A stretch of 54,384 nt of DNA from the IMG/VR virus record IMGVR_UViG_3300044809_000029, positions 1-54,384 of that record; one strand, 5' to 3'. Below the pieces are notes generated by a model that had not been told where the DNA came from, did not search any database, and saw only the letters and a list, made by a program, of their open reading frames with translations. Source of the DNA: a virus. Lineage: Duplodnaviria > Caudoviricetes. Within the stretch, counting starts at the first letter, position 1, and every line of letters begins with the position of its first letter. Below are positions 4,066 to 33,025 of this stretch, piece by piece. A program made the translations under genes and the position numbers.

Positions 4066-4491
4066 CTACTTGCAGTTCAGGACGCGGAGCGCGTCGATCG
4101 TGCGCTGCTGGTTCTCGATGCCGTCACGGATCGACTTCGCAGGCAAGCCGAACGCGCCGTGGGGATGGTTCGTGAGGAACCTGATCCCACTGTCGACGCG
4201 CTGCTGAAGGTCATGACGCAACGCGCACAACGCGACCGTTGCCTGCTGGTTCTGACGGGCGAGCGACGCGCTCGTGCGGGCGAGTGCCGCGATCTTCGCC
4301 GTCTGCTCCTTCGACGGCTTATCCGAGAGTTGCTGGCCGAACACCCAGAACGCGACGATGCACGCGAGACCGATAGCGACGTACCCCTGCCAGTTCGACC
4401 GGCCGCGCTCACCCCGGCGGCCGCGTTCGCCCCGCTCCCCCTCATCACCGTGCTGGCCGTGATCGCCCGTCGGGCCGCGTTCGCCGCTCAT
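4066..4491 (-). CDS. Lysis-cassette membrane protein with N-terminal Gly-X-Y repeat and coiled coil
   Basis: GERGPTGDHGQHGDEGERGERG, one TM, two Cys in the extracellular part. Confidence 0.7.
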   Translation of the reverse strand: MSGERGPTGDHGQHGDEGERGERGRRGERGRSNWQGYVAIGLACIVAFWVFGQQLSDKPSKEQTAKIAALARTSASLARQNQQATVALCALRHDLQQRVDSGIRFLTNHPHGAFGLPAKSIRDGIENQQRTIDALRVLNCK

Positions 4492-4582
4492 GTTACCTCC
4501 AAGACCAAATAGAGCGCGAGCAGCAGCGTGGCCCACGACGCGGCCCAAGCGTGCCGGATCAGCACCCACCGAAGGGTCCGCA

Positions 4583-16256: not shown

Positions 16257-17723
16257 TTACGCGAGCGACTGGTTGGGCTGGGCGAGCGACAGCAGGAACG
16301 TGATGAACTCCGCCCCGGGAGCGGGACGGAACCCCGTCGCGACCCACATCTGCCGGGCCGTCGCGGTGTCCGGCGTGTTCACCGAGTCGGTATCCACGAC
16401 GAACCCGCTCCCCGGCGTGTCGTTGTCGTCGAGGAACAGGTGATCCGCGAGCTCCTCCGCCATGAACACCGCAGTCGCGGCGTCGTGGAGGCGGATCAGG
16501 CGGCGATGCGTGATCGGGACGTGCTCGAAGCTCTGCCCGATCACGGTGAGCTGCGCGACGATGCTCATCCGCTGCCGGCACACGCTCATCTGCAACCACT
16601 CCGAGTCGTTGCCGAGCGGCTCCACGAGAGAGCGGTTGCCGTCGAACATCACGCCGCCGTAACGGCTGATGATGAGGTCCACGCCCGCGTCTTGGAGGTC
16701 GAGCTGGTCCTGGTTGACGTAGGTGGCCTTCACGTCGAGGACGAGGCTGGAGCGGGCCTTGCCGTGCTCCCCAGCGGGGGCCTGGTTCGCCCCGTCCGAC
16801 GCGTCGGTCTCCGCGCACTTCGCAGCGACGAACGCCGACGGGGGAACGCTCCGGACGGTGCCGGCGCTGGTGCCGGTGATCTTCAGCCACGGCGCGAGCA
16901 GCGACCCGTACAGGCCGTTCACGCTGCCCTGATCCGACGCGGCGAGGCTGAGGAGCGTGCTCTTGCTCGTCGTGTCCGTCGTGTCGCACAAGGCGTACCG
17001 GTTGTTGGCTGCGGCGTGAGCGAGAAGGCTCGTGTGCGCCGCGGCGGTCTGCCAGTTCGGGGAACAGACCTGACCGGGCCCGAGGTCCGGGCTGATGAGC
17101 GCGAGAGCCGTGTCCACCTGGGTCTGCGTGACGTTCACGTGGTCGTCCACTCCGCCCGTGAGGTTCGTCGCCCCGACCACCGTCGGCTGCCCGGACCCAC
17201 CGCCGAGCGCGAGCGTGACGTACGTCGAACTCGGCGACCACGTGACCGCATCAGCGGTCGTCAGGAACTCCGGGGTGCGCTCGACCTCCACGGCGTTGAG
17301 GTACACGACGACTTGCCGGTAGGAGCCACCGGAGGGGCCCGCGACGATCGCGTACGTGAGACCGCCGGTCGCGCCGTTCGCCCAATCGCCGCTGCTCTTG
17401 GCGGTGATGACGAGGGTCGTGCCCGTCCCGGCGATGTTCGCGCTCGCCTTCGCCCCCGCGGGCCCGTAGGAGCGGCTGTAGTAGACGGTCTGCCCGCCTT
17501 CGCGGAAGAACGTCTCCACCCAGTCGTAGTCGACGGACCAGGACACGCGCGCGCCGAGCTTGCTCGTGAAGTCGTCGAGGGAATGCAACGCGATCACGGC
17601 CGGGTTGCCCTGCGAGTCGGTGCCTCCCTTCTGCGCGAGGCCGGCGAGGAACGCGACGCCCGTGTCAGTCGGCGCGTTGCGCTGAGGCGGCGAGTCGCGA
17701 AGGATGACCGTGGTGCGCTTCAT
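16257..17723 (-). CDS. Contractile tail sheath protein
   Basis: TGVAFLAG, FFREGG, AKSSGDWAN, LTGG.D, VPPSAFVAA, QAPAG, PAPGAEFI. Confidence 0.9.
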   Translation of the reverse strand: MKRTTVILRDSPPQRNAPTDTGVAFLAGLAQKGGTDSQGNPAVIALHSLDDFTSKLGARVSWSVDYDWVETFFREGGQTVYYSRSYGPAGAKASANIAGTGTTLVITAKSSGDWANGATGGLTYAIVAGPSGGSYRQVVVYLNAVEVERTPEFLTTADAVTWSPSSTYVTLALGGGSGQPTVVGATNLTGGVDDHVNVTQTQVDTALALISPDLGPGQVCSPNWQTAAAHTSLLAHAAANNRYALCDTTDTTSKSTLLSLAASDQGSVNGLYGSLLAPWLKITGTSAGTVRSVPPSAFVAAKCAETDASDGANQAPAGEHGKARSSLVLDVKATYVNQDQLDLQDAGVDLIISRYGGVMFDGNRSLVEPLGNDSEWLQMSVCRQRMSIVAQLTVIGQSFEHVPITHRRLIRLHDAATAVFMAEELADHLFLDDNDTPGSGFVVDTDSVNTPDTATARQMWVATGFRPAPGAEFITFLLSLAQPNQSLA

Positions 17724-19158: not shown

Positions 19159-19653
19159 CTACGGCAGCAGTTCGGTCTCGACGGGAAGGCCCGGCCAGGA
19201 GTTCGCGACGACTGTTCCGACGGGCACCGAGTACGCGCGCACCCCGCCCGGCTGATCCTCCTGGGACGCAGCGACCGCGCCCTCCATGATGCTCGCGAAG
19301 TCCGCCTCGTACCCGTCGACGGGGCTTGATCCCTGCGCGATCTGCTCCGGGAAATAGGAGCGCTCAGCGGTCGCGGCGACCTTCAACGCGACCGCGTACT
19401 TCACCGCCGGGTACTGCGCCTCGGGAACAGTCGTGGGGAGCCTGACCAGGGTCGCGATGTTCACGAGGTCGATCAAGCCCTGGACTTGCGCGCGTGTCGG
19501 GACCGTGGAGTCGGTGAAGGTTGCGTTCGCGTTCGGGTCGCCGCCCTGGTCGGTGAGTCGCGCGCGCATGAGTAGCGCCACGTCGTCCGGGGTTGGCAGC
19601 AGGGCGGAGACGACATCGGGGTCGCCCTGGTTGAAGAGGAGAAGCAGGCTCAC
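19159..19653 (-). CDS. Head-to-tail adaptor
   Basis: PTPDDVALLMRAR...TFTDSTVPT...ERSYFPEQ; GGAGG RBS. Confidence 0.7.
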   Translation of the reverse strand: MSLLLLFNQGDPDVVSALLPTPDDVALLMRARLTDQGGDPNANATFTDSTVPTRAQVQGLIDLVNIATLVRLPTTVPEAQYPAVKYAVALKVAATAERSYFPEQIAQGSSPVDGYEADFASIMEGAVAASQEDQPGGVRAYSVPVGTVVANSWPGLPVETELLP

Positions 19654-19712
19654 GGGGCCTCCCGGGATAGGGGGCTTGTCACCGACTCGCGAGCACGCGA
19701 CACTCACGCGCC

Positions 19713-20453
19713 ATGCGACAAGCACTCAGAAAAACCGCGCAACGCCACGCGCCGCAGCTCATGGCCGAGCGCGCCCGCCAGTACGAGATCGGGCTCCGCG
19801 AGCGGCAGGGCATCACCGCGCTCGGCGATCGCATGGAGCCCGTCGTCCAGGCCGGCCCGTTCCAGGGGCTGCGCTACCCAGCCGAGCGGCTCGCGGAGGT
19901 GGACGCCCCGGTCGCGAAGTTCCTCGGCGTCTACGAGCAGGAGGTCGGCTACGTCTTTGAGGAGCCGCGCGCGCGGTTCGTGGACGTGGGGTGCGCGGAC
20001 GGGTACTACGCGGCGGGGATGGCCCTGCGGGGCGCGCGAGTGATCGGGTTCGACATTGCTCGGTCCGCACGCGAACTCTGCGACACGGTCGCGGGCATGA
20101 ACGCGGTCGAGGTGGAGATCGGCAAGCGGTTCGCGCCCGACGACGCGGGCTTGGTGCGTGACGGGCTGTTGCTCGTCGACATCGAAGGCGGGGAACGCGA
20201 TCTGTTCACGCCCAGCGTTGTCGAGCATCTCGGGGAGGCCCGGGTGCTGGTGGAGGTCCATGAGGACTTCCGGCCCGGCACCAGCGAATATCTGACCGCC
20301 CTGTTCGCTGCCTCGCATGAGGTCCGCCGCGTCGATCAGCAGCCCCGAGCGACCCCGGCGCCGCTACGGGAGTGGCCGCCGGAGGAAGTGGCATTGGCGC
20401 TGACGGAGCACCGGCCGCCGCTCATGCACTGGCTGGACTGCGTGCCGCGCTAG
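19713..20453 (+). CDS. SAM-dependent methyltransferase, FkbM-like (moron)
   Basis: LGVYE, FVDVGCADGYY motif I, VIGFD, LVDIEGGE, VEVH. Confidence 0.8.
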   Translation: MRQALRKTAQRHAPQLMAERARQYEIGLRERQGITALGDRMEPVVQAGPFQGLRYPAERLAEVDAPVAKFLGVYEQEVGYVFEEPRARFVDVGCADGYYAAGMALRGARVIGFDIARSARELCDTVAGMNAVEVEIGKRFAPDDAGLVRDGLLLVDIEGGERDLFTPSVVEHLGEARVLVEVHEDFRPGTSEYLTALFAASHEVRRVDQQPRATPAPLREWPPEEVALALTEHRPPLMHWLDCVPR

Positions 20454-20707
20454 TTCGGTGGCGCGAAGAACTCGGCCATGTACTCGCCCGGGATCTTGAC
20501 GCCGCCGCCCGGAGGCGCCTTCGGCCACCACTCAGGGAGCGATCCTTCCTTGATGATGATCGGTCCGCCAGCGCCGCCACCTCCGCCTCCGCCGACGTTT
20601 CCCATTCGAGGATTCCGCTCGGCGAGCGCGCGTTGCACGGCTTCCGCGACGCCCGGGCCGAAGACCGCTCCCGTGAACGCATCCACGATCCATCTCGGGT
20701 CACTCAT
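20450..20707 (-). CDS. Small hypothetical protein with Gly run
   Basis: ORF; shares VAEAVxRAL with 20786..21103. Confidence 0.55.
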   Translation of the reverse strand: MSDPRWIVDAFTGAVFGPGVAEAVQRALAERNPRMGNVGGGGGGGAGGPIIIKEGSLPEWWPKAPPGGGVKIPGEYMAEFFAPPN

Positions 20708-20785
20708 CGCCTAGCGATCCTACTCGGCTACTCGGGCAAATCCGCACTGGTTGGACTGCGTACCGCGCCCGTAGTTCCCAGGCGG

Positions 20786-21103
20786 TCATGCGCGTTCCGC
20801 GGCGGGGAAGTCGGCCTGGTCGACCCACCGCTCGCCACCGGGCGCAGTCGAGTCGAAGACGCGCACCTGCCCGGTCGAGCCGACGCCCGGGATGACGCGC
20901 GGGCCTCCACGCGGCCCGCTGTTTCCCCCGCCTAAGGAAGCGCGGCTGCCGAGGGCGCGATGTACTGCTTCGGCGACGCGTCGGAGCTCGTCCGGCATGA
21001 TCGGCATTGGGTCGTAGGCCTCGATGTTGCACCAGCCCGCTTCGCCGACCGCCTCTCGAAGCGCGTCGTAGATCAGCGTCAGGTCCTGTCGCTCGGTGCT
21101 CAT
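20786..21103 (-). CDS. Small hypothetical protein with fibre-like motif
   Basis: ORF; VGSTGQVRVFDSTAPGGERW. Confidence 0.6.
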   Translation of the reverse strand: MSTERQDLTLIYDALREAVGEAGWCNIEAYDPMPIMPDELRRVAEAVHRALGSRASLGGGNSGPRGGPRVIPGVGSTGQVRVFDSTAPGGERWVDQADFPAAERA

Positions 21104-21132
21104 CGACGGATGATCCCACGACCCTCGGAGGT

Positions 21133-21981
21133 CTAAGTCTTGGCGGTAGCGGCGGGGGCGACGGGGATCGCGCTGCCGGTGATGAGCCGGATCGCGCGGT
21201 CCCGCGCAACCTGCTCCCGGAGGCTGTCGAGCTGGCCTTCGCGGCGGTGGTCAGCGACGATCGCGTAGGCGGAGCGGCCGCTTGAGCGCGCCCACTTGTG
21301 CAGGAGGTCCGAGTGCGGAAGTTCCCGGTCGGTGGGAGTGAGCTTCTCCGCGAAGATGATCCGGGCGAGGACCATCTCGCGGCTGAGAACCCTCTCGATC
21401 CGCGCGCGGGCCTGCTCGGGGATCTCGTCCACGGGCTGCCCGGTCGCGCGTTCGATCTCGCGACGGGTGACGCGCAGGTCTGACCCGGCGACTACCGCGT
21501 CCAGGGCGGCATCGGCGAAGGCGTGCTTGGCCCGTTCGATCTCGGCTTCCTGCGCCCACCGCTCGCATTCCGCGAAGAGTTCCTCGGGGGTCTCATGGCC
21601 GCCCTGGTCAGCGAGTTCGTCGACGTTCGGCCGGTGCTTCATGGTGACGCCCTGGACGTGGACGCTCAGGGTGACGGGCGAGCCGTTCTGCGTGATCGTG
21701 ACGTCGCGGGTCTCCCCAGCACGAACGCCGAGGAGGCCGTCCTCGAAGCCTTCGGCGGTCCCGCCGCCGCCGAGCATGACGGTGACATCGCTCGCCTCCA
21801 GGGGCCCCGAGAAGTCGAGGGTGACGAGATCGCCATGCTCGGCGGGGCGAGCAGCCGGTGAGGTGGTGGCGTGGCGTTCGCGGAGGATCTCGACCTCCAT
21901 CGCGATCCGGTCGGGGGTGACCGGTCGCGGATCGACGCGCTCGACCTCCAGGCCCTTGTACTGGCCGAGTCGGGTGAGCAT
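21133..21981 (-). CDS. tig: Trigger-factor homologue lacking the N-terminal ribosome-binding domain
   Basis: LGQYKGLEVE linker, RPAEHGDLVTLDFSG and GFEDGLLG.RAGE FKBP-like domain, helical C-domain ending LREQVARDRAIRLI. Confidence 0.85.
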   Translation of the reverse strand: MLTRLGQYKGLEVERVDPRPVTPDRIAMEVEILRERHATTSPAARPAEHGDLVTLDFSGPLEASDVTVMLGGGGTAEGFEDGLLGVRAGETRDVTITQNGSPVTLSVHVQGVTMKHRPNVDELADQGGHETPEELFAECERWAQEAEIERAKHAFADAALDAVVAGSDLRVTRREIERATGQPVDEIPEQARARIERVLSREMVLARIIFAEKLTPTDRELPHSDLLHKWARSSGRSAYAIVADHRREGQLDSLREQVARDRAIRLITGSAIPVAPAATAKT

Positions 21982-24977
21982 CAGGCGAGGACGGTTTGGA
22001 AGACGGTTCCCGCGGCGCCGTCCGTGCCGTTGGCGCCCGTGCCGACCCCGTTGCCGTGCGTGCCGCCCGGAGAGGACAGGGTGCCCGCGTTGACGATCGG
22101 GGTGGTCGTGAACAGCACGACCGGGCCGCCGCCGCCACCACCGCCCCCGCCGCAGTTGCCCGTGGTGGGGGTGAAGCCGTTGCCGCCCGCGGAGCGGATC
22201 GTGCCGCCCGTGTTGTCGATCGACAGCGCGAAGATGATGACGCTCCCGCCTCCTGCGCCACCACCACCGCCGCTGTTCGTGCCGTCCCCGCCGCCGCCGC
22301 CGCCGCCGGTCCCGCCTGAGAGCGTGCGAACAGCGCCCGTGACGGGCGTCGCTGAGGTCAGGACGACCGACGGGATCTTCAACCGCTCCTTCGCCACGGT
22401 CGAAGTCGCCACGCCCGCAGGACCAGCAGAACCCGTGGACCCCGCTCCGCCCGCACCGCCGAGGCCAGACACGGCGAGGGCTGACACCGCGGCGGGAGTG
22501 GAGGGCGTGCCGGTAGCGCCGTTGCCGCCGTTGCCGCCGCTGCTCCATGTTCCGCTGCCGCCGCCTCCGGCTCCCGCCGTGGCAACAGAGGATGTGCCGT
22601 CGTCGTGGATCGTGCCCGCGTTGACGAACGCGCCCTGACAGAAGATCGCGTAGCCCTGCGTCTTGACCGTCACGCCCGTGTTGACGGTGAACGTGGTGGA
22701 GTGGCACTCGCGGTTCAGCGTGTAGGTCGTACCGGAGCGCGAGAAACCAGTGACGGCGCTCGTGCCGTCGAGGACGAGGGCGCCGTCCGAGCCGTCACCG
22801 AGCAGGCCCGCCCAGCCGCCGGTCGCGCCCGCGAGAGTGGCCCACTTCGCGCCGCCAGGCTGCGTCGAGTCCGCGGTGAGGACTTGGCCGTTCGTGCCGA
22901 TCGCCTTGCGGATGATCGTGTTGTCGGCCGACCCGATGAGGAGGTCGCCCTTCGCGTCGATGAGCGTCTGGAGGATCGCGTTCGGGTCCCCGCCGCCGTT
23001 GTTGGTGACGAGGCGCGAGTCGACCTTCACGCCGCTCGCGAGCCCGGCGTAGCTCCACGCCACCGCGGGCCCGTCCCACGGTCCGGCGGCCTTGACGACC
23101 TTCCCCGCGTTGGAGGGGTCCGGCTTGAGCCATGTGTCGGCGCTCGTGATCGACGCGTCAGTGGACGCGAGGTCCATGCGCTGCCCGGGCTCCCACATCA
23201 GGAAGTAGCCGGCGACCGTCGCGAAGTCCTGCGCGGCGACGCCGTGAACCGGGCCGGTCCCGCCCGCGGGGTAGCGCTTGAGGCGCTCGGAGGAGAGGCT
23301 CGTGCCGATCAGATCGTTCGCGGTCACGGCGCCCGTGTCGAGCTTCACGAGGTGCCCTTGCTTGCCCTTCGGGCCCTTCACGACGAGCGTCGGCGTGCCG
23401 CTTGTCGCGGTCCAGATCGGCTTGGTGTTGCTGATCCAGGTGAGGTCCACCGGCTCGAGGACGTTGCCGTTGGTGCCCCCGGCGGCGAGGATCGCGCAGC
23501 CGTCCGAGTCCGGACCGGGCGTGAGCAGGCTGCCGACGTCGCCGATCATGATGTTCGAGTCGAAGACGCCGCACTTCACGGAGGCGCGCTGCGGCTGCCC
23601 CACGACCATGCGATCAGTCGTGAACGCGTTGGCGGTCGACGCGCCGAGCCAGAGGTTCCTGGTGACGCTGTCGTCGCTGACGCTGTAGATGTACCCGTTG
23701 CCGTACGCCTCGCAGGGGCAGTCGCGGAGCACGGCGCCGCTCAGCAGGATCTGGTTCGGCCACAAGGGCACGAGCGTCGTCGCGGTCGACGGGCCCGTGT
23801 CCGTGAAGACGTTGGTGAGGGAGACGAACCGGGCGAGGACCGTCGTCGTGCCTGGCGTCGCGCTCGTCGCGCGGTAGACGATCCACGCGGTGGCGTCCGC
23901 GTCCGCGGGCATCGTGATCGTGGCGCTACCACCCGCAGCGACGACGGTCGCTGCGGACGCAGCGCTGACCATCGCCTCATCGACGACGCCGTACAGGGGC
24001 GCGTAGAAGTAGAAGAACGTGCCACCCGCGGTGAACGGAGCGCCCGTGGAGCCGCCGACATTGGCGACGGTGGTCGGGCCGGCGACCGGGGTGCTGCTCT
24101 CCCCGTAGATCCCGTAAGGGCCATCACCGAGATGCGCGCTGTCCGCTGAAACTCCGCCGATCATGTTGGAGCCCTTGCAGGCCCAACTGCTGAAGATGTT
24201 GCTCGCGAAGTTCGACCCGCCGCCGATGTACTGGTCCGCCTCCGCGTTGCGATCCAAGCCCCAGAAGAGACCGAGGTAGTTGCTCGAGCAGATCGTGTCG
24301 TACACCGAGGAGTGGTCGGCCGCGAACTCGATCCCGCGGTAGAAGTAGCTGGCGCGGACATCCCACGTAGAGCAGTTGCCGCCCGCAAGCAGCAAGCCGT
24401 GCATCTTGCACGGGGCCGGACCACCGGGGCTGCTGGTGTGCGTGGGGCCGCTGACGCCGATCCCGCGGATCTCGAAGTGCTCCGCCTTCAGGATGTCCGG
24501 GCGCAGCGCGTAATAGCCCTTCCCGAAGTCCGTGAGCGGCTGGATGACCGATGCCTCTTTGCCGTCCCCGTAGATGTTCGTCTTGGCGCCCGTGGCGACG
24601 ACCTCCGCGTCGGTTCGGTAGGCCGCCTGAGGCATGTAGATCGCGCTGGTGCGGGAAGGGTCGATGATCGCGGCGTTCGCGGCGAGGATCGCGGCAGTGA
24701 TCGCGCACCAGTCGATCTGCTGCGCTGTGCTGAGGGCGAACGGGTAGACGACCTGCGCGGCCGCGAGCGACGCGAACCGGGTCGAGAGAGCGTGCGCGGT
24801 GCCGTCGCCGATCGCGCCGTAGTCCTTGACGTTGAACCCGGACGGGGCAACGCCCTTGAACTTCCCCGCGATCGCGTCGTAGACCAGGCGGCGGTGGTCG
24901 AGAGCAGCAGTCGCCGCGTCAACGTCAGTGAGGGTCGCGAGGCTCCCGCCCCCCGATGAACGACCGGAGCTACTCAT
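21981..24977 (-). CDS. Large multidomain fibre/depolymerase in the head module
   Basis: FNVKDYGAIGDG beta-helix start, IDAKGDLLIG motif, GDGSDGAL and Gly-rich C-terminus. Confidence 0.85.
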   Translation of the reverse strand: MSSSGRSSGGGSLATLTDVDAATAALDHRRLVYDAIAGKFKGVAPSGFNVKDYGAIGDGTAHALSTRFASLAAAQVVYPFALSTAQQIDWCAITAAILAANAAIIDPSRTSAIYMPQAAYRTDAEVVATGAKTNIYGDGKEASVIQPLTDFGKGYYALRPDILKAEHFEIRGIGVSGPTHTSSPGGPAPCKMHGLLLAGGNCSTWDVRASYFYRGIEFAADHSSVYDTICSSNYLGLFWGLDRNAEADQYIGGGSNFASNIFSSWACKGSNMIGGVSADSAHLGDGPYGIYGESSTPVAGPTTVANVGGSTGAPFTAGGTFFYFYAPLYGVVDEAMVSAASAATVVAAGGSATITMPADADATAWIVYRATSATPGTTTVLARFVSLTNVFTDTGPSTATTLVPLWPNQILLSGAVLRDCPCEAYGNGYIYSVSDDSVTRNLWLGASTANAFTTDRMVVGQPQRASVKCGVFDSNIMIGDVGSLLTPGPDSDGCAILAAGGTNGNVLEPVDLTWISNTKPIWTATSGTPTLVVKGPKGKQGHLVKLDTGAVTANDLIGTSLSSERLKRYPAGGTGPVHGVAAQDFATVAGYFLMWEPGQRMDLASTDASITSADTWLKPDPSNAGKVVKAAGPWDGPAVAWSYAGLASGVKVDSRLVTNNGGGDPNAILQTLIDAKGDLLIGSADNTIIRKAIGTNGQVLTADSTQPGGAKWATLAGATGGWAGLLGDGSDGALVLDGTSAVTGFSRSGTTYTLNRECHSTTFTVNTGVTVKTQGYAIFCQGAFVNAGTIHDDGTSSVATAGAGGGGSGTWSSGGNGGNGATGTPSTPAAVSALAVSGLGGAGGAGSTGSAGPAGVATSTVAKERLKIPSVVLTSATPVTGAVRTLSGGTGGGGGGGDGTNSGGGGGAGGGSVIIFALSIDNTGGTIRSAGGNGFTPTTGNCGGGGGGGGGPVVLFTTTPIVNAGTLSSPGGTHGNGVGTGANGTDGAAGTVFQTVLA

Positions 24978-25708
24978 CGGGTCGCCACCGACACTTCCGT
25001 CGTGCCCGAGACGCGCTCCAAGTACAAGCTCGTGCCGTACGCGATGCCGTTCGTGAAGCTGTCGCGGATCGACTCGTTCGCCGCGAGGGAAACCGTCGCG
25101 AGGATCGTGCCGCCGGACCCGTCACGCAGTCGCAGGACCGCGCCGGCGGACGTGGTCGTCTCCCGGGCGCTGAAGCTCATCAGGCGCCCAGTGCCCGCGA
25201 CGAGTTGCCCAGAGGAGGTCGCGGCAGCGGAAGCGAACGGGGTGGCGCCCGTGAGGAGCGCCTGGATCGCCGCGAGAGCGGTGTTGGCCGTCCCCTGACC
25301 AGTGCCCGTCGACGGGTCGCTCGTGATCTTCGCGAGCACGGCCGCGAGAGTCGTCTGCGTCGCGGGGTCCGCGGTGAGCTTCGCGAGGACAGCCGCCAGC
25401 GTGGTCTGCGAGGCGAGACCCGCGGTGTTCGTCTCCAGTCCGTCGACCGACGCCAGAACCGAGGCGAGCGTGGCCTCCGTCGCCGGCGCGGCGATGATCT
25501 TCGCAAGGATCGAAGCCAGCGTCGCCTGCGTCGCGAGCGTCGCGAGGTCGAAGTCGTTGGCGACCCCGTCCCCGCCCGTCGCGAGCTTGATGATCTGCGC
25601 TTGGACGCCATCCTGCGCGGGAGGGGAGCCGTTGCGGCTCGTGACCTCATCGGTGAGGACACGGAACGGGTTGCCGTCGGCGTCCTTGAGCTTCGTGTCG
25701 TCAGCCAT
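24974..25708 (-). CDS. Virion structural protein with ATQTTLAAVLAK-type repeats
   Basis: Four to five imperfect helical repeats plus a beta-rich C-terminal domain. Confidence 0.75.
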   Translation of the reverse strand: MADDTKLKDADGNPFRVLTDEVTSRNGSPPAQDGVQAQIIKLATGGDGVANDFDLATLATQATLASILAKIIAAPATEATLASVLASVDGLETNTAGLASQTTLAAVLAKLTADPATQTTLAAVLAKITSDPSTGTGQGTANTALAAIQALLTGATPFASAAATSSGQLVAGTGRLMSFSARETTTSAGAVLRLRDGSGGTILATVSLAANESIRDSFTNGIAYGTSLYLERVSGTTEVSVATR

Positions 25709-26241: not shown

Positions 26242-27153
26242 TCAGGCCTGCAGGCCGGTGACCTCGAGGATCGCGAACGGGTCGGTGACGTACATGATCG
26301 GCAGCACGAACGACTGGAACCAGTCGCCCTGGCGGCCGTCCTTGTCGCGCCACGTCTCCGTCGTGAGGGGCATCTCGTAGCCGAGCTCGCCGACCTGTCC
26401 GGCGGCCAGGAAGTACGCGGAGCCGCCGGCCTTGCGGTTGGTGACCCACACGTTGTTGATCCCGGTGTCAGCGAGGACCGCCCGCGCCTGCGCCGCCGTC
26501 GCGCCGACCGCCATGCGGAAGTTCCGCCAGTCGACCGGGTTGACGATCATCGTGTCGTACTCGTAGCCGAGCTCGGTCTGCTCGACGGACTGCTGCACGA
26601 GCGTGAGATCGCTGATCGGCAGCGCGTTCGGTGCCGCGGTCGTCATGGTGAGCGCGGTCGCGTCCCCCCACGAGGAGCCGGTGGCCGTGCGGGAGTTCGC
26701 GGTGATCGCCGCCGCCAGCTCCGTGAGCGCGCGCTGCTGGACCTTGCGCACGATCGTGTTCGACAGCCGGGTGATGTCGCGCTGCACGCGACCGATGCGG
26801 TTGCGGCGACGTGCCTCGTCGGAGACGACGAACTTGCCGCCGAACTTCTCGACCTGCGCCGTGAGCGGGGCCGGGCGATCGAAGGTGATCTCCGGGAACT
26901 CACCGAGCGGCTCGACGCGCTGCACGTCACGGGTGGCGTACAGGTCGTTGGTGGTCGCCTGGTCGTAGATCACAGCGCCGCCGGTGATGTCACCGGCCGG
27001 GCTGAAAATCCGGTCGACCATGAACTTCTGCAGCGCGAGGTTGCTGATCGCTCGCGTGACGCGCGTGACGTCGTCGAGCAGCCAGTCCACGGTGTACGTG
27101 GTGCCCGACAGCGTCGGGGGAGCGAGGGGATAGGTGAGTGCGTCGTCAGCCAT
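26242..27153 (-). CDS. Major capsid protein (HK97 fold)
   Basis: VEPLGEFP...VEKFGGKFVVSDEARRRN; position after decoration and scaffold genes. Confidence 0.88.
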   Translation of the reverse strand: MADDALTYPLAPPTLSGTTYTVDWLLDDVTRVTRAISNLALQKFMVDRIFSPAGDITGGAVIYDQATTNDLYATRDVQRVEPLGEFPEITFDRPAPLTAQVEKFGGKFVVSDEARRRNRIGRVQRDITRLSNTIVRKVQQRALTELAAAITANSRTATGSSWGDATALTMTTAAPNALPISDLTLVQQSVEQTELGYEYDTMIVNPVDWRNFRMAVGATAAQARAVLADTGINNVWVTNRKAGGSAYFLAAGQVGELGYEMPLTTETWRDKDGRQGDWFQSFVLPIMYVTDPFAILEVTGLQA

Positions 27154-31441: not shown

Positions 31442-33025
31442 CTATAGGTAGGCTAAAGCTCGCGACCGCCTAGAAGCGCCCGCCGCGATGGCGTCCCCGC
31501 GGCACTCCCACGAGAGGACAGCGGCCATCGCCGCGTCGATCTTCCGCGGGGAGTCATGCCGGTCCTTCGCGAGCGTGTGCATCTGCTGGTGGCGCTCATC
31601 CCACACGTTGACCTTGCGCTTGCGCGCGTGCCGGATGTGAGCGTCGAACGTCGCCTCCCCCGGGTGGGAGAGATCACCGGACCCGATCGCGGTCGCGTAG
31701 TTGCGGACAGCCGCGGCGATCTGCCGGTCCCGGTTCGTTGTCCACACCAGGACGCGCTTGTCGCCCCACCGGCCCTGCCACGCGTCCACGAGATGCTCGA
31801 TGTACTGCGGGTCGACGTACGCGCGCCACACGTCGAACCGCTCGAACGCCTCGCGCATCGCAGCGTCAACGTCATGAAACGGATGCTCGTACTCCGGAGG
31901 GGCGCTGGGAGGGCGTTCGATGATCCCGAGCGGCCACTGGTAGCCCGTCAGGATCTCCGTCGCGATCACGGCGATGGAATCGCGGTTGCGGGCACCATCG
32001 ACACCCACAACGATCAAGCCACCCGGGGCGGGTTCGTGCGCGACCGCGAGATCGTGCCAACGGTCAATGTCGAACGCGGCGCTCTCACCGGCCATCTTGC
32101 GGTTCAGGAAGAATCGCTCCGCCTGCGCCGGGTCATGCTCGAGCAGCGCAACGATCTCCGAGTCGATCCGGTCAAGATCAATCCACGGCTTCACAGCGCC
32201 GATCACGCCGTCGCGGGTCCCGGAGCAGGAGTCGCGGTAGACGCGTTTGAGCATCCGGCGGCGCTCCGCCTTGTTCCTTACCGAGCCCGGGCCGGGCTCA
32301 ACGTCGTCGTGGTAGACGCCCGGTTCCTCAGCGGTCTGCTGCGCCACCGAGTTCTCAACGGGGTCCCACGCGTTCGGGGTCTCCACGAACCGGCCGCCCA
32401 TGCCCGCGAGGCCGCGCCGCTGGTTGTCAGCGAGCGCGCGGCCGGCGTTCGTGCGATACCACGACTCGGTCTGATCCTGCACCGTGAAAGTGATCCGCTG
32501 CCCGAGCCGGGAGAGCGCCGCAGCTGTGACCGGCTCGATCAGGCCACCGGAAGGGAGGTTGATGCGGGTCTTGCCCGTGTCCGGGATGTCCGCGCGGATA
32601 CTGCCGAGTTCGATCATCGGCAGGAGCGCTCGAAAGACGTTCGCGGTCTGATCCTCCGAGACAGCGGTGACCTGAATGTGCGGTGACGGCCACGGCTTCC
32701 CGACCGGCTCCCCTTCTGCGTCCCACCCAGCGAACAAGACGGGGCCCTCCGGGTCAGCTTCCGCGCAGATGATCGCCGCGCTGAACGGGCCCTTCCCCCA
32801 CTTCTGCGGCCGGACGAGCTGCGAGCCGCGATCCCAATGAAACCGCTCAGTCTCCGGGTCGATCCGGTAGTGGTGCAGGAGGAACCGCAACATCTCGTCC
32901 GTCAGCAGGAACGGCTCGCCGGCTCGTTCACCGTCCGGGATCGCGCACTTCGCCTCGATCAGGTCCGCTACGAGATACCCGAGCGTCGGGAACTCCCCGG
33001 GGACCCGGGCGCCACGCCACGGCAT
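31442..33025 (-). CDS. terL: Terminase large subunit
   Basis: RPQKWGKG Walker A, VQDQTE Walker B-like, GVDGA...KIDAAMA nuclease motifs. Confidence 0.92.

Follow-up and report, generated by a model that had tools for sequence, protein, structure and literature searches.

Two small orphan frames beside a phage fibre gene carry fibre-type motifs and are candidate fibre accessory genes

The stretch of DNA considered here, hereafter the window, is the whole of IMG/VR virus record IMGVR_UViG_3300044809_000029, a complete record of 54,384 bp with terminal repeats and 68% GC. Between its head and neck genes the minus strand holds a cassette encoding a 244-amino-acid (aa) protein, a 998-aa fibre, a trigger-factor (TF)-like protein and two small open reading frames (ORFs), ORF105 and ORF85, which are the subject of this analysis. 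Each of the two small ORFs contains one fibre-specific motif, half of a fibre repeat in ORF105 and a Gly-run-plus-strand unit in ORF85, and the occurrence of these two motifs in adjacent orphan ORFs within 1.7 kb of a fibre having both is, judging from the sequences, not a coincidence. The reading that we favour, albeit at somewhat less than even odds, is that ORF105 and ORF85 encode accessory proteins of the fibre that are specific to this lineage and assembled from fibre-type motifs, because the frames look coding, because the pair are alike outside the fibre motifs, and because their position suits fibre helpers, next to a chaperone gene whose translation is apparently coupled to that of the fibre.

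Fibre motifs in the two small ORFs

ORF105 (105 aa, acidic, pI 4.9; 20786-21103, minus strand, its own frame being the best of six by codon usage) has at residues 73-97 (20813-20887) the half-repeat GVGSTGQVRVFDSTAPGGERWVDQA. All strings cited in the original prediction were found at the positions given there. The original prediction had pointed to an 11/20 identity between ORF105 and a segment of the fibre, and this identity is contained in a BLASTP match of ORF105 residues 74-97 to fibre residues 693-716, in which 12 of 24 positions are identical (E 3e-5); a search of the phage's own genome with ORF105 finds the fibre site at E 6e-4. A repeat profile, assembled from 54 repeats of 26 proteins, none of them from the window, and scored on the 469 six-frame ORFs of at least 40 aa present in the 54 kb, gives 60.5 bits for the fibre, 21.4 bits (E 4.3e-6) for ORF105 and 7.2 bits for the next ORF. 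A full HMMER search with ORF105 among 1.84 billion representatives returned four proteins, namely ORF105 itself, P0004, P0005 and P0003; P0004 and P0005 are long multi-repeat fibre proteins matched at ORF105 residues 71-102, and in the comparison with P0009 18 of 35 residues are identical. The half-repeat retains all key positions (G..GQV, DS and G..W) and, scored as a half, reaches 24.6 bits, as compared to 44.1 for the fibre and 36.5 for gp112 of Mycobacterium phage Myrna. On these sequence comparisons, significant by three independent routes (BLASTP, full HMMER and repeat profile), the likeness of the ORF105 half-repeat to the fibre repeat is clearly beyond chance.

The fibre itself (998 aa; 21981-24977, minus strand) is assigned as a fibre or spike from PDB sequence matches and PHROG tail families. 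Its residues 48-151 match the tailspikes 4ru5 and 4ru4 (E ~1e-10 in a PDB sequence search), which we take to be gp27 of phage phi297 and gp49 of LKA1. The full repeat of ~46 residues (residues 673-718, 22824-22961) sits where the enzymatic beta-helix joins the C-terminal module, has the consensus ...TAKGDLL...RLGVGTNGQVLTADS....G.KW..., and belongs to PHROG 9851, 38058 (tail fiber protein), 33513, 32934 and 23837 (tail fiber or virion structural annotations). It is scarce, being present in 2 of 9634 background ORFs, which were taken from 101 related loci comprising 1.25 Mb at a median GC of 65%. The carriers that were found are 551-1583 aa long and have mostly whole repeats, often several; within a set of 123 fibre proteins the repeat occurs in 29, at domain junctions or near N-termini, the latter in 14 of the 29. 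At the DNA level the fibre repeat is 77% identical over 84 nucleotides (nt) to Myrna gp112 (L095 3501-3584), and overall it looks like a junction element shared by the fibre genes of unrelated phages. In Myrna gp112 the repeat lies near the N-terminus, and the gene preceding gp112 is annotated as head decoration or putative tail fiber.

The second motif is that of the Gly-rich C-terminal module of the fibre (~290 residues; residues ~705-998, 21984-22865, minus strand). This module has 126 homologues, which form the C-terminal ends of beta-helix proteins that otherwise vary widely, and a strongly conserved consensus, in which T.GNCGGGGGGGGG is followed by a hydrophobic strand; within the fibre of the window the hallmark motif reads GNCG9PVVLF (22113-22169, minus strand). 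ORF85 (85 aa, acidic, pI 5.2, 21% Gly and 13% Pro; 20450-20707, minus strand), the last gene of this minus-strand block, has at residues 32-54 (20546-20614) the hallmark-like Gly-run-plus-strand unit NPRMGNVGGGGGGGAGGPIIIKE. On comparison of GNVGGGGGGGAGGPIII from ORF85 with GNCGGGGGGGGGPVVLF from the fibre, the hallmark GN-x-polyGly plus hydrophobic strand is found to be present, in the form GN-x-G7...GGP-III, and at the DNA level the unit has, over 37 nt, 81% identity to fibre positions 22125-22161. Among the 9634 background ORFs, GN.G5 occurs in 13, GN.G7 in 5, and G7 followed by three I/L/V within five residues in 24; every one of these ORFs carries the module, with the motif inside it, and in the window runs of five Gly are confined to the fibre and ORF85. 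The suggestion that a segment of ORF85 resembles the fibre C-terminus is borne out for this motif. ORF85 shares the T.GN(C/A)G9-hydrophobic-strand hallmark, whereas the rest of the protein is unrelated to the module, composition-corrected BLASTP finds no match between ORF85 and the fibre, and ORF85 falls outside the module family.

Neither the fibre repeat nor the Gly-rich module has a solved structure or a Pfam model. For the module, an AlphaFold2 (AF2) model based on a 26-row alignment (predicted local distance difference test score, pLDDT, 87.9; predicted template modelling score, pTM, 0.86) places strands directly after the poly-Gly runs, which is the kind of unit present in ORF85. Foldseek returned no match to this model at E <= 0.001. 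With VIA-align the best rows are beta-solenoids (1rwr, Z 8.7; bactofilin, Z 8.3), and antifreeze proteins that form poly-Gly/polyproline II bundles are also among the matches (2pne, Z 6.0 with 81 aligned residues and 35% identity; 7jjv, Z 5.8); all these Z values are middling, and they are no more than suggestive of a beta-solenoid with polyglycine II (PGII)-like poly-Gly packing. For ORF105 the prediction is of helices in the N-terminal part, then a linker rich in Gly, and a beta hairpin at the C-terminus, the single-sequence AF2 model of low confidence (pLDDT 55.8) having helices at residues 3-19, 21-28 and 38-50, disorder at 53-75, and strands at 69-71, 79-83 and 91-95. The ESM Atlas models of ORF105 and ORF85 are likewise of low confidence, with no usable look-alikes (ORF85 pLDDT 0.55). 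A predicted complex of ORF85 with the C-terminal module of the fibre (26-row alignment), modelled as a 1:1 pair, scored 0.00 in two runs, a result that bears neither way. Stand-alone extra copies of the Gly-rich module, 279-327 aa in length, are located directly 3' of module-ending fibres at two loci (L083 5825-7521 and L092 6844-7827).

Kinship and coding status of ORF105 and ORF85

The two small ORFs resemble not only the fibre but also each other. As had been proposed, both contain a helix motif, VAEAVHRAL at residues 43-51 of ORF105 (20951-20977, minus strand) and VAEAVQRAL at residues 20-28 of ORF85 (20624-20650, minus strand), and BLASTP aligns the pair with 9 of 12 residues identical (E 0.005). 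The shuffled controls proposed in the original prediction lend this likeness modest support: with Gly masked, the Smith-Waterman score is 39 as against 24.1 +/- 4.2, a value reached by 25 of 3000 shuffles (p ~0.008). Whole-length semi-global alignment scores 66 as against 24.7 +/- 7.5, reached by a single one of 3000 shuffles (by 97 of 3000 when Gly is masked), and brings in a further, weak similarity at the N-termini (reached by 190 of 5000 shuffles). The two proteins also share a Gly linker ending GGPx(I/V)I, and among the 469 ORFs of the window each is the other's best length-normalised partner. No similarity extends to the C-terminal tails, whose score is reached by 883 of 3000 shuffles. 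ORF105 and ORF85 are probably weak paralogues, a kinship that is modestly supported and unproven, and the likeness outside the fibre motifs fits a duplicated small gene. The N-terminal part of ORF105 has one other partner, the fourth protein of the HMMER search, P0003 (256 aa), which is made up of three nearly identical units of 69 aa in tandem, with 32-36% identity to residues 3-44 of ORF105; we judged this likeness to be uninformative.

The codons used are of relevance here. They differ at 5 of the 9 identical residues of ORF105 and ORF85 in the helix, and at 7 of the 12 identical residues of ORF105 and the fibre in the repeat, where nucleotide identity is 45/72 (~63%). Because many identical residues use different codons in all three comparisons, the likeness is kept at the protein level, as had been supposed from the synonymous differences, and does not reflect a recent DNA copy. 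The spacer between the two ORFs (78 nt; 20708-20785, minus strand) continues the reading frame of both and is interrupted by three stop codons, so that a readthrough fusion of ORF105 and ORF85 can be ruled out. The same spacer has on the plus strand a tandem of CTACTCGG x2 (20720-20735).

By codon usage both ORFs look coding. GC content at third codon positions (GC3) is highest in the called frame (0.81 for ORF105 and 0.77 for ORF85), and a codon-usage log-odds score trained on 17 confident genes of the phage is, for both, the best of six in the called frame (0.17 and 0.19, respectively), each score exceeding those of 41 of 42 spurious ORFs. An AGGA precedes the ATG of ORF85 by 14 nt, as it does in several neighbours.

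Accessory genes or remnants of a fibre gene

Several observations weigh against an accessory function. ORF105 aligns only to positions 21-45 of the 48 in the repeat profile, that is, to the second half, a Gly-rich linker standing in place of the TAKGDLL half, such that the whole ~46-residue unit is not present; moreover, the half that it has is divergent, all but 3 of the 53 reference halves scoring higher. Unlike the other carriers of the fibre repeat, therefore, ORF105 has half of one divergent copy in 105 aa. On a profile of the module (101 sequences, 288 positions), ORF85 aligns to 22 of the 288 positions with 12.3 bits (E 0.0016), and its tail, the remaining 33 residues, is unlike the module, since shuffled tails did equally well or better in 475 of 500 cases, by which the tail is ruled out as a module C-terminus. 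The GC3 values of both ORFs lie below the 0.87-0.93 of their neighbours, their codon scores rank low in the range spanned by 19 further small genes (-0.03 to 0.50), and ORF105, which starts 29 nt after the TF stop, has no clear Shine-Dalgarno sequence or ribosome-binding site before it. The conservation searches point in the same direction. A word-indexed search of 5.8 billion clusters with ORF105 and ORF85 recovered the window's own proteins only; the full HMMER search gave for ORF105, besides itself, motif-level or odd matches only; no match to ORF105 was found in phage records, no real relative of either ORF in scans of viral and metagenome contigs for close relatives, and nothing credible for either in 401 sampled genomes of the Mycobacteriales, the order of one prophage host. 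Genome matches at E 1e-4 to 1e-2 per genome proved to be long or stop-interrupted frames and were set aside as noise.

Nor is the four-gene cassette, whose conservation the original prediction had proposed to check, kept in the related phages examined. A trimmed-alignment scan yielded 54 viral loci with a homologous module, and in none of the 44 that have at least 1.5 kb downstream is there a TF-, ORF105- or ORF85-like gene, or a small ORF bearing the repeat, beside the module; there was likewise no TF-, ORF105- or ORF85-like tblastn match in 36 capsid-related viral loci, and no cassette in 10 prophage relatives. Small ORFs on the same strand directly 3' of a homologous fibre are found at 22 of 49 loci; a Gly run is present in 1 of these 22, an ORF that has been split off from the module itself. 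In the capsid-related loci a fibre-like tblastn match was also found in 0 of 36, yet on inspection the fibre of one of them, L008, shares the C-terminal module, with a neck gene directly after it.

Some of these observations are what would be expected if at least part of the pattern arose by chance or from low-complexity sequence, given a genome of 68% GC, one or both ORFs not being genes. The 12.3 bits of ORF85 on the module profile are surpassed by a spurious Gly-rich ORF with 13.6 bits (ORF105 has 1.2 bits), composition-corrected BLASTP does not link ORF85 to the fibre, and the whole-length likeness of the pair is weak once Gly is masked. In addition, VAEAV[HQ]RAL and a second pattern taken from the ORF105/ORF85 alignment were matched by 506 metagenome-contig stretches, and the two stretches that passed tblastn as relatives of the pair turned out to be antisense frames of unrelated bacterial genes. 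We nevertheless hold this explanation to be improbable, since the repeat match of ORF105 is significant by each of its three routes, GN.G7 and the G7-plus-strand motif never occur outside the fibre module in the background ORFs, and the annotated frames are those favoured by codon usage.

The most serious contender, although still an unlikely one, and akin to the reservoir of fibre fragments envisaged in the original prediction, is that ORF105 and ORF85 are functionless, open frames in GC-rich DNA left over from fibre-gene shuffling, decaying remains either of a former fibre-like gene or of recombination intermediates. Such frames are common, as the 469 ORFs in 54 kb attest, and only pieces of the fibre motifs, a half repeat at the divergent extreme of its family and one Gly-run unit, are present. 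The ORFs share a frame, with three stops between them, and the order of their motifs, from repeat to Gly-run, is that of the fibre; GC3 and codon scores fall under those of the neighbours, and homologues were not found in the databases searched. The repeat is furthermore shared at the DNA level with Myrna gp112, its placement at junctions and N-termini is that expected of a recombination linker, and ORF105 resembles a truncated fibre N-terminus, because its motif is at residues 74-93 and that of Myrna gp112 at residues 81-100. Against such an origin by decay stands the codon usage of both ORFs, which score best of six in their own frames and higher than all but one of the 42 spurious ORFs. When positions 20300-21200 are compared by blastx with 123 fibre-family proteins, the ORF105 motif is all that is detected in any frame, so that a decayed fibre gene in other frames is ruled out, and the ORF85 tail has no trace of the module. 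Random debris would also not be expected to be alike in its non-fibre parts, as ORF105 and ORF85 are in the helix motif and N-terminus, and phage genomes seldom keep 650 nt of junk.

A third possibility is that the two are real accessory genes of the moron type that are unrelated to the fibre, serving, for example, host takeover or counter-defence, and form an islet with the adjoining methyltransferase-like gene, the fibre-like motifs being incidental raw material. The methyltransferase-like gene (19713-20453, plus strand; weak Pfam and PHROG matches below the cut-offs) is convergent with ORF85 and inserted in the late operon, and the position of the pair at the end of the block beside it would suit such an islet, as would the variability of the capsid-to-neck slot in relatives and the orphan status that the pair share with many phage accessory genes. 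The two ORFs have no Pfam, PHROG or NCBIfam match at E up to 1, other than two PHROG rows of unknown function (E 0.14 and 0.25), which provides no handle on a moron function in these collections (PADLOC was not searched). That neighbouring ORFs should each contain a different motif specific to fibres, at a distance of 1-1.7 kb from a fibre carrying both, is hard to accept as a coincidence. We regard this possibility as rather improbable.

If ORF105 and ORF85 are, as we favour, fibre accessory proteins, each would consist of a short helical head, a Gly-rich linker and one fibre-type structural unit, the motifs having most likely been captured from fibre genes by recombination. Both proteins would be produced together with the fibre, and each might dock on the matching fibre element by edge or strand complementation, acting either as a small accessory or capping subunit or as a transient assembly helper alongside the TF-like chaperone.

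In this context a comparison with known systems is instructive. Phage fibre chaperones and adhesin partners are usually encoded just downstream of the fibre gene, as described for Pam3 gp25/gp24 (PMC9608196) and for T-even gp38/gp37 (PMC6851490). In the Pam3 report the glycine-rich domain of fibre gp24 is embraced by the chaperone gp25 (PMC9608196), and gp38 of S16 is described as a beta-helix in which PGII helices such as GGGGGGGG form a polyglycine sandwich (PMC6851490). In published fibres such glycine-rich parts serve receptor binding. The arrangement in the window is like that reported for Pam3 gp25 and T-even gp38 in that small genes lie downstream of a fibre with a glycine-rich distal part. 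It differs from them in that ORF105 and ORF85 have no sequence or family relationship to these proteins (Pfam, PHROG, NCBIfam) and carry the fibre's own motifs, and in that the TF-like gene lies between the fibre and the small genes.

Should ORF105 and ORF85 indeed cooperate with the fibre, two building blocks that are widespread in fibres would have in them their smallest carriers known to date, and the pair would offer a handle both on the folding of repetitive glycine-rich receptor-binding domains and on the choice of client by a phage TF that lacks its ribosome anchor. Should they be debris, they would constitute a record of fibre genes cut and rejoined at a conserved repeat. In either case the profiles built here separate the repeat and the Gly-run motifs cleanly from the background.

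The trigger-factor-like gene and the genome setting

The gene between the fibre and ORF105 encodes a TF-like chaperone of 282 aa (21133-21981, minus strand), which scores higher than the Pfam cut-offs for both Trigger_C (28.8 bits) and FKBP_C (22.6 bits). The alignment to TIGR00115 covers positions 107-409 of 410 (94.1 bits; cut-off 180.2), and the Pfam scan finds no Trigger_N ribosome-binding domain; since the TIGR00115 alignment begins only at position 107, the protein lacks this domain. The ATG of the TF-like gene shares a base with the TGA of the fibre (TGATG), an overlap of start and stop which suggests that the translation of the TF-like protein is coupled to that of the fibre. The retention of the peptidyl-prolyl isomerase (PPIase) and the C-terminal client-binding parts, with the ribosome-binding domain gone, in turn points to a phage-encoded chaperone coupled to the fibre and dedicated to a single client. 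PceT and RdhT of the reductive dehalogenase gene clusters are dedicated TF-like chaperones without ribosome docking. The TF-like protein of the window likewise keeps the PPIase and C-terminal parts without the ribosome-binding domain, but its gene belongs to a phage and is coupled to that of a fibre, and ORF105 and ORF85 have no counterpart in the PceT and RdhT systems.

Close relatives of the TF-like protein were found in none of the viral and metagenome contigs scanned. Its matches in phage records are to four unannotated fecal contigs, of which the one inspected has the gene order tig-clpP-clpX and is probably bacterial; a location of tig near clpXP is described in one published account (PMC7804408). 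A literature search retrieved no article that describes a trigger factor encoded next to a fibre gene in a phage, nor any on the GQVL repeat.

It had been proposed that the fibre, the TF-like protein and two motif mimics form one assembly system. In its most elaborate form this would be a private folding kit, in which a ribosome-independent TF coupled to the fibre is joined by two mini-proteins, each displaying one fibre element, a half beta-repeat in one case and a poly-Gly helix with its strand in the other, as a template or cap and thus nucleating or protecting this element until the fibre is complete. The searches for the cassette in related phages gave the proposal no positive support, and we consider a kit of this kind a long shot. 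We know of no description of motif mimicry as an assembly principle for fibre chaperones.

On the other side of the fibre, just upstream, lies the gene for the 244-aa protein (24974-25708, minus strand), which has repeats of the ATLAxxLAK type and no Pfam, PHROG or NCBIfam match. The part of the fibre N-terminal to the beta-helix is only ~45 residues long, and the 244-aa protein is possibly a shaft or adaptor. At the other end of the block the stop of the methyltransferase-like gene overlaps that of ORF85 inside CTAG. This gene is antisense within the late operon, its start overlapping the first start codon of a divergent 188-aa ORF of the neck region (19159-19725), and its 5' end includes a hairpin resembling a terminator, followed on the minus strand by the neck genes and having a run of T on that strand (19736-19756).

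The remainder of the late region, all of it on the minus strand, was assigned by a PHROG scan and comprises the large terminase (31442-33025), followed by portal, protease and scaffold, the major head protein (26242-27153), and the tail sheath (16257-17723) with tube, tape measure and baseplate. The presence in this layout of tail sheath, tube, tape measure and baseplate identifies the phage, by sequence assignment, as a contractile-tailed phage of the myovirus type. Its host is likely actinobacterial, because prophage relatives of the capsid gene reside in Tsukamurella, Nocardia, Gordonia, Nakamurella, Speluncibacter and one metagenome-assembled genome of the Solirubrobacteraceae. Two soil metagenome DNA runs, belonging to two studies, contain sequence-identical pieces of the phage, and one of them may be its source; because the pieces in both are identical, a selection test had no variants to work on. 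No RNA run is listed among the sequencing runs that contain this stretch.

The slot between head and neck genes is filled in the capsid-related phages L005 (10900-14600) and L008 (10900-14450) by different fibre-like genes, in L005 by a collagen-like protein together with a beta-helix, and in L008 by a fibre with the same Gly-rich module as the fibre of the window. As this slot is an unusual one for fibre genes, their products may be head or neck fibres. Elsewhere in the window, near the endolysin gene, a 167-aa protein (4066-4569, minus strand) has a short collagen-like G-x-y stretch matching tail-fibre PHROGs, followed by a hydrophobic segment.

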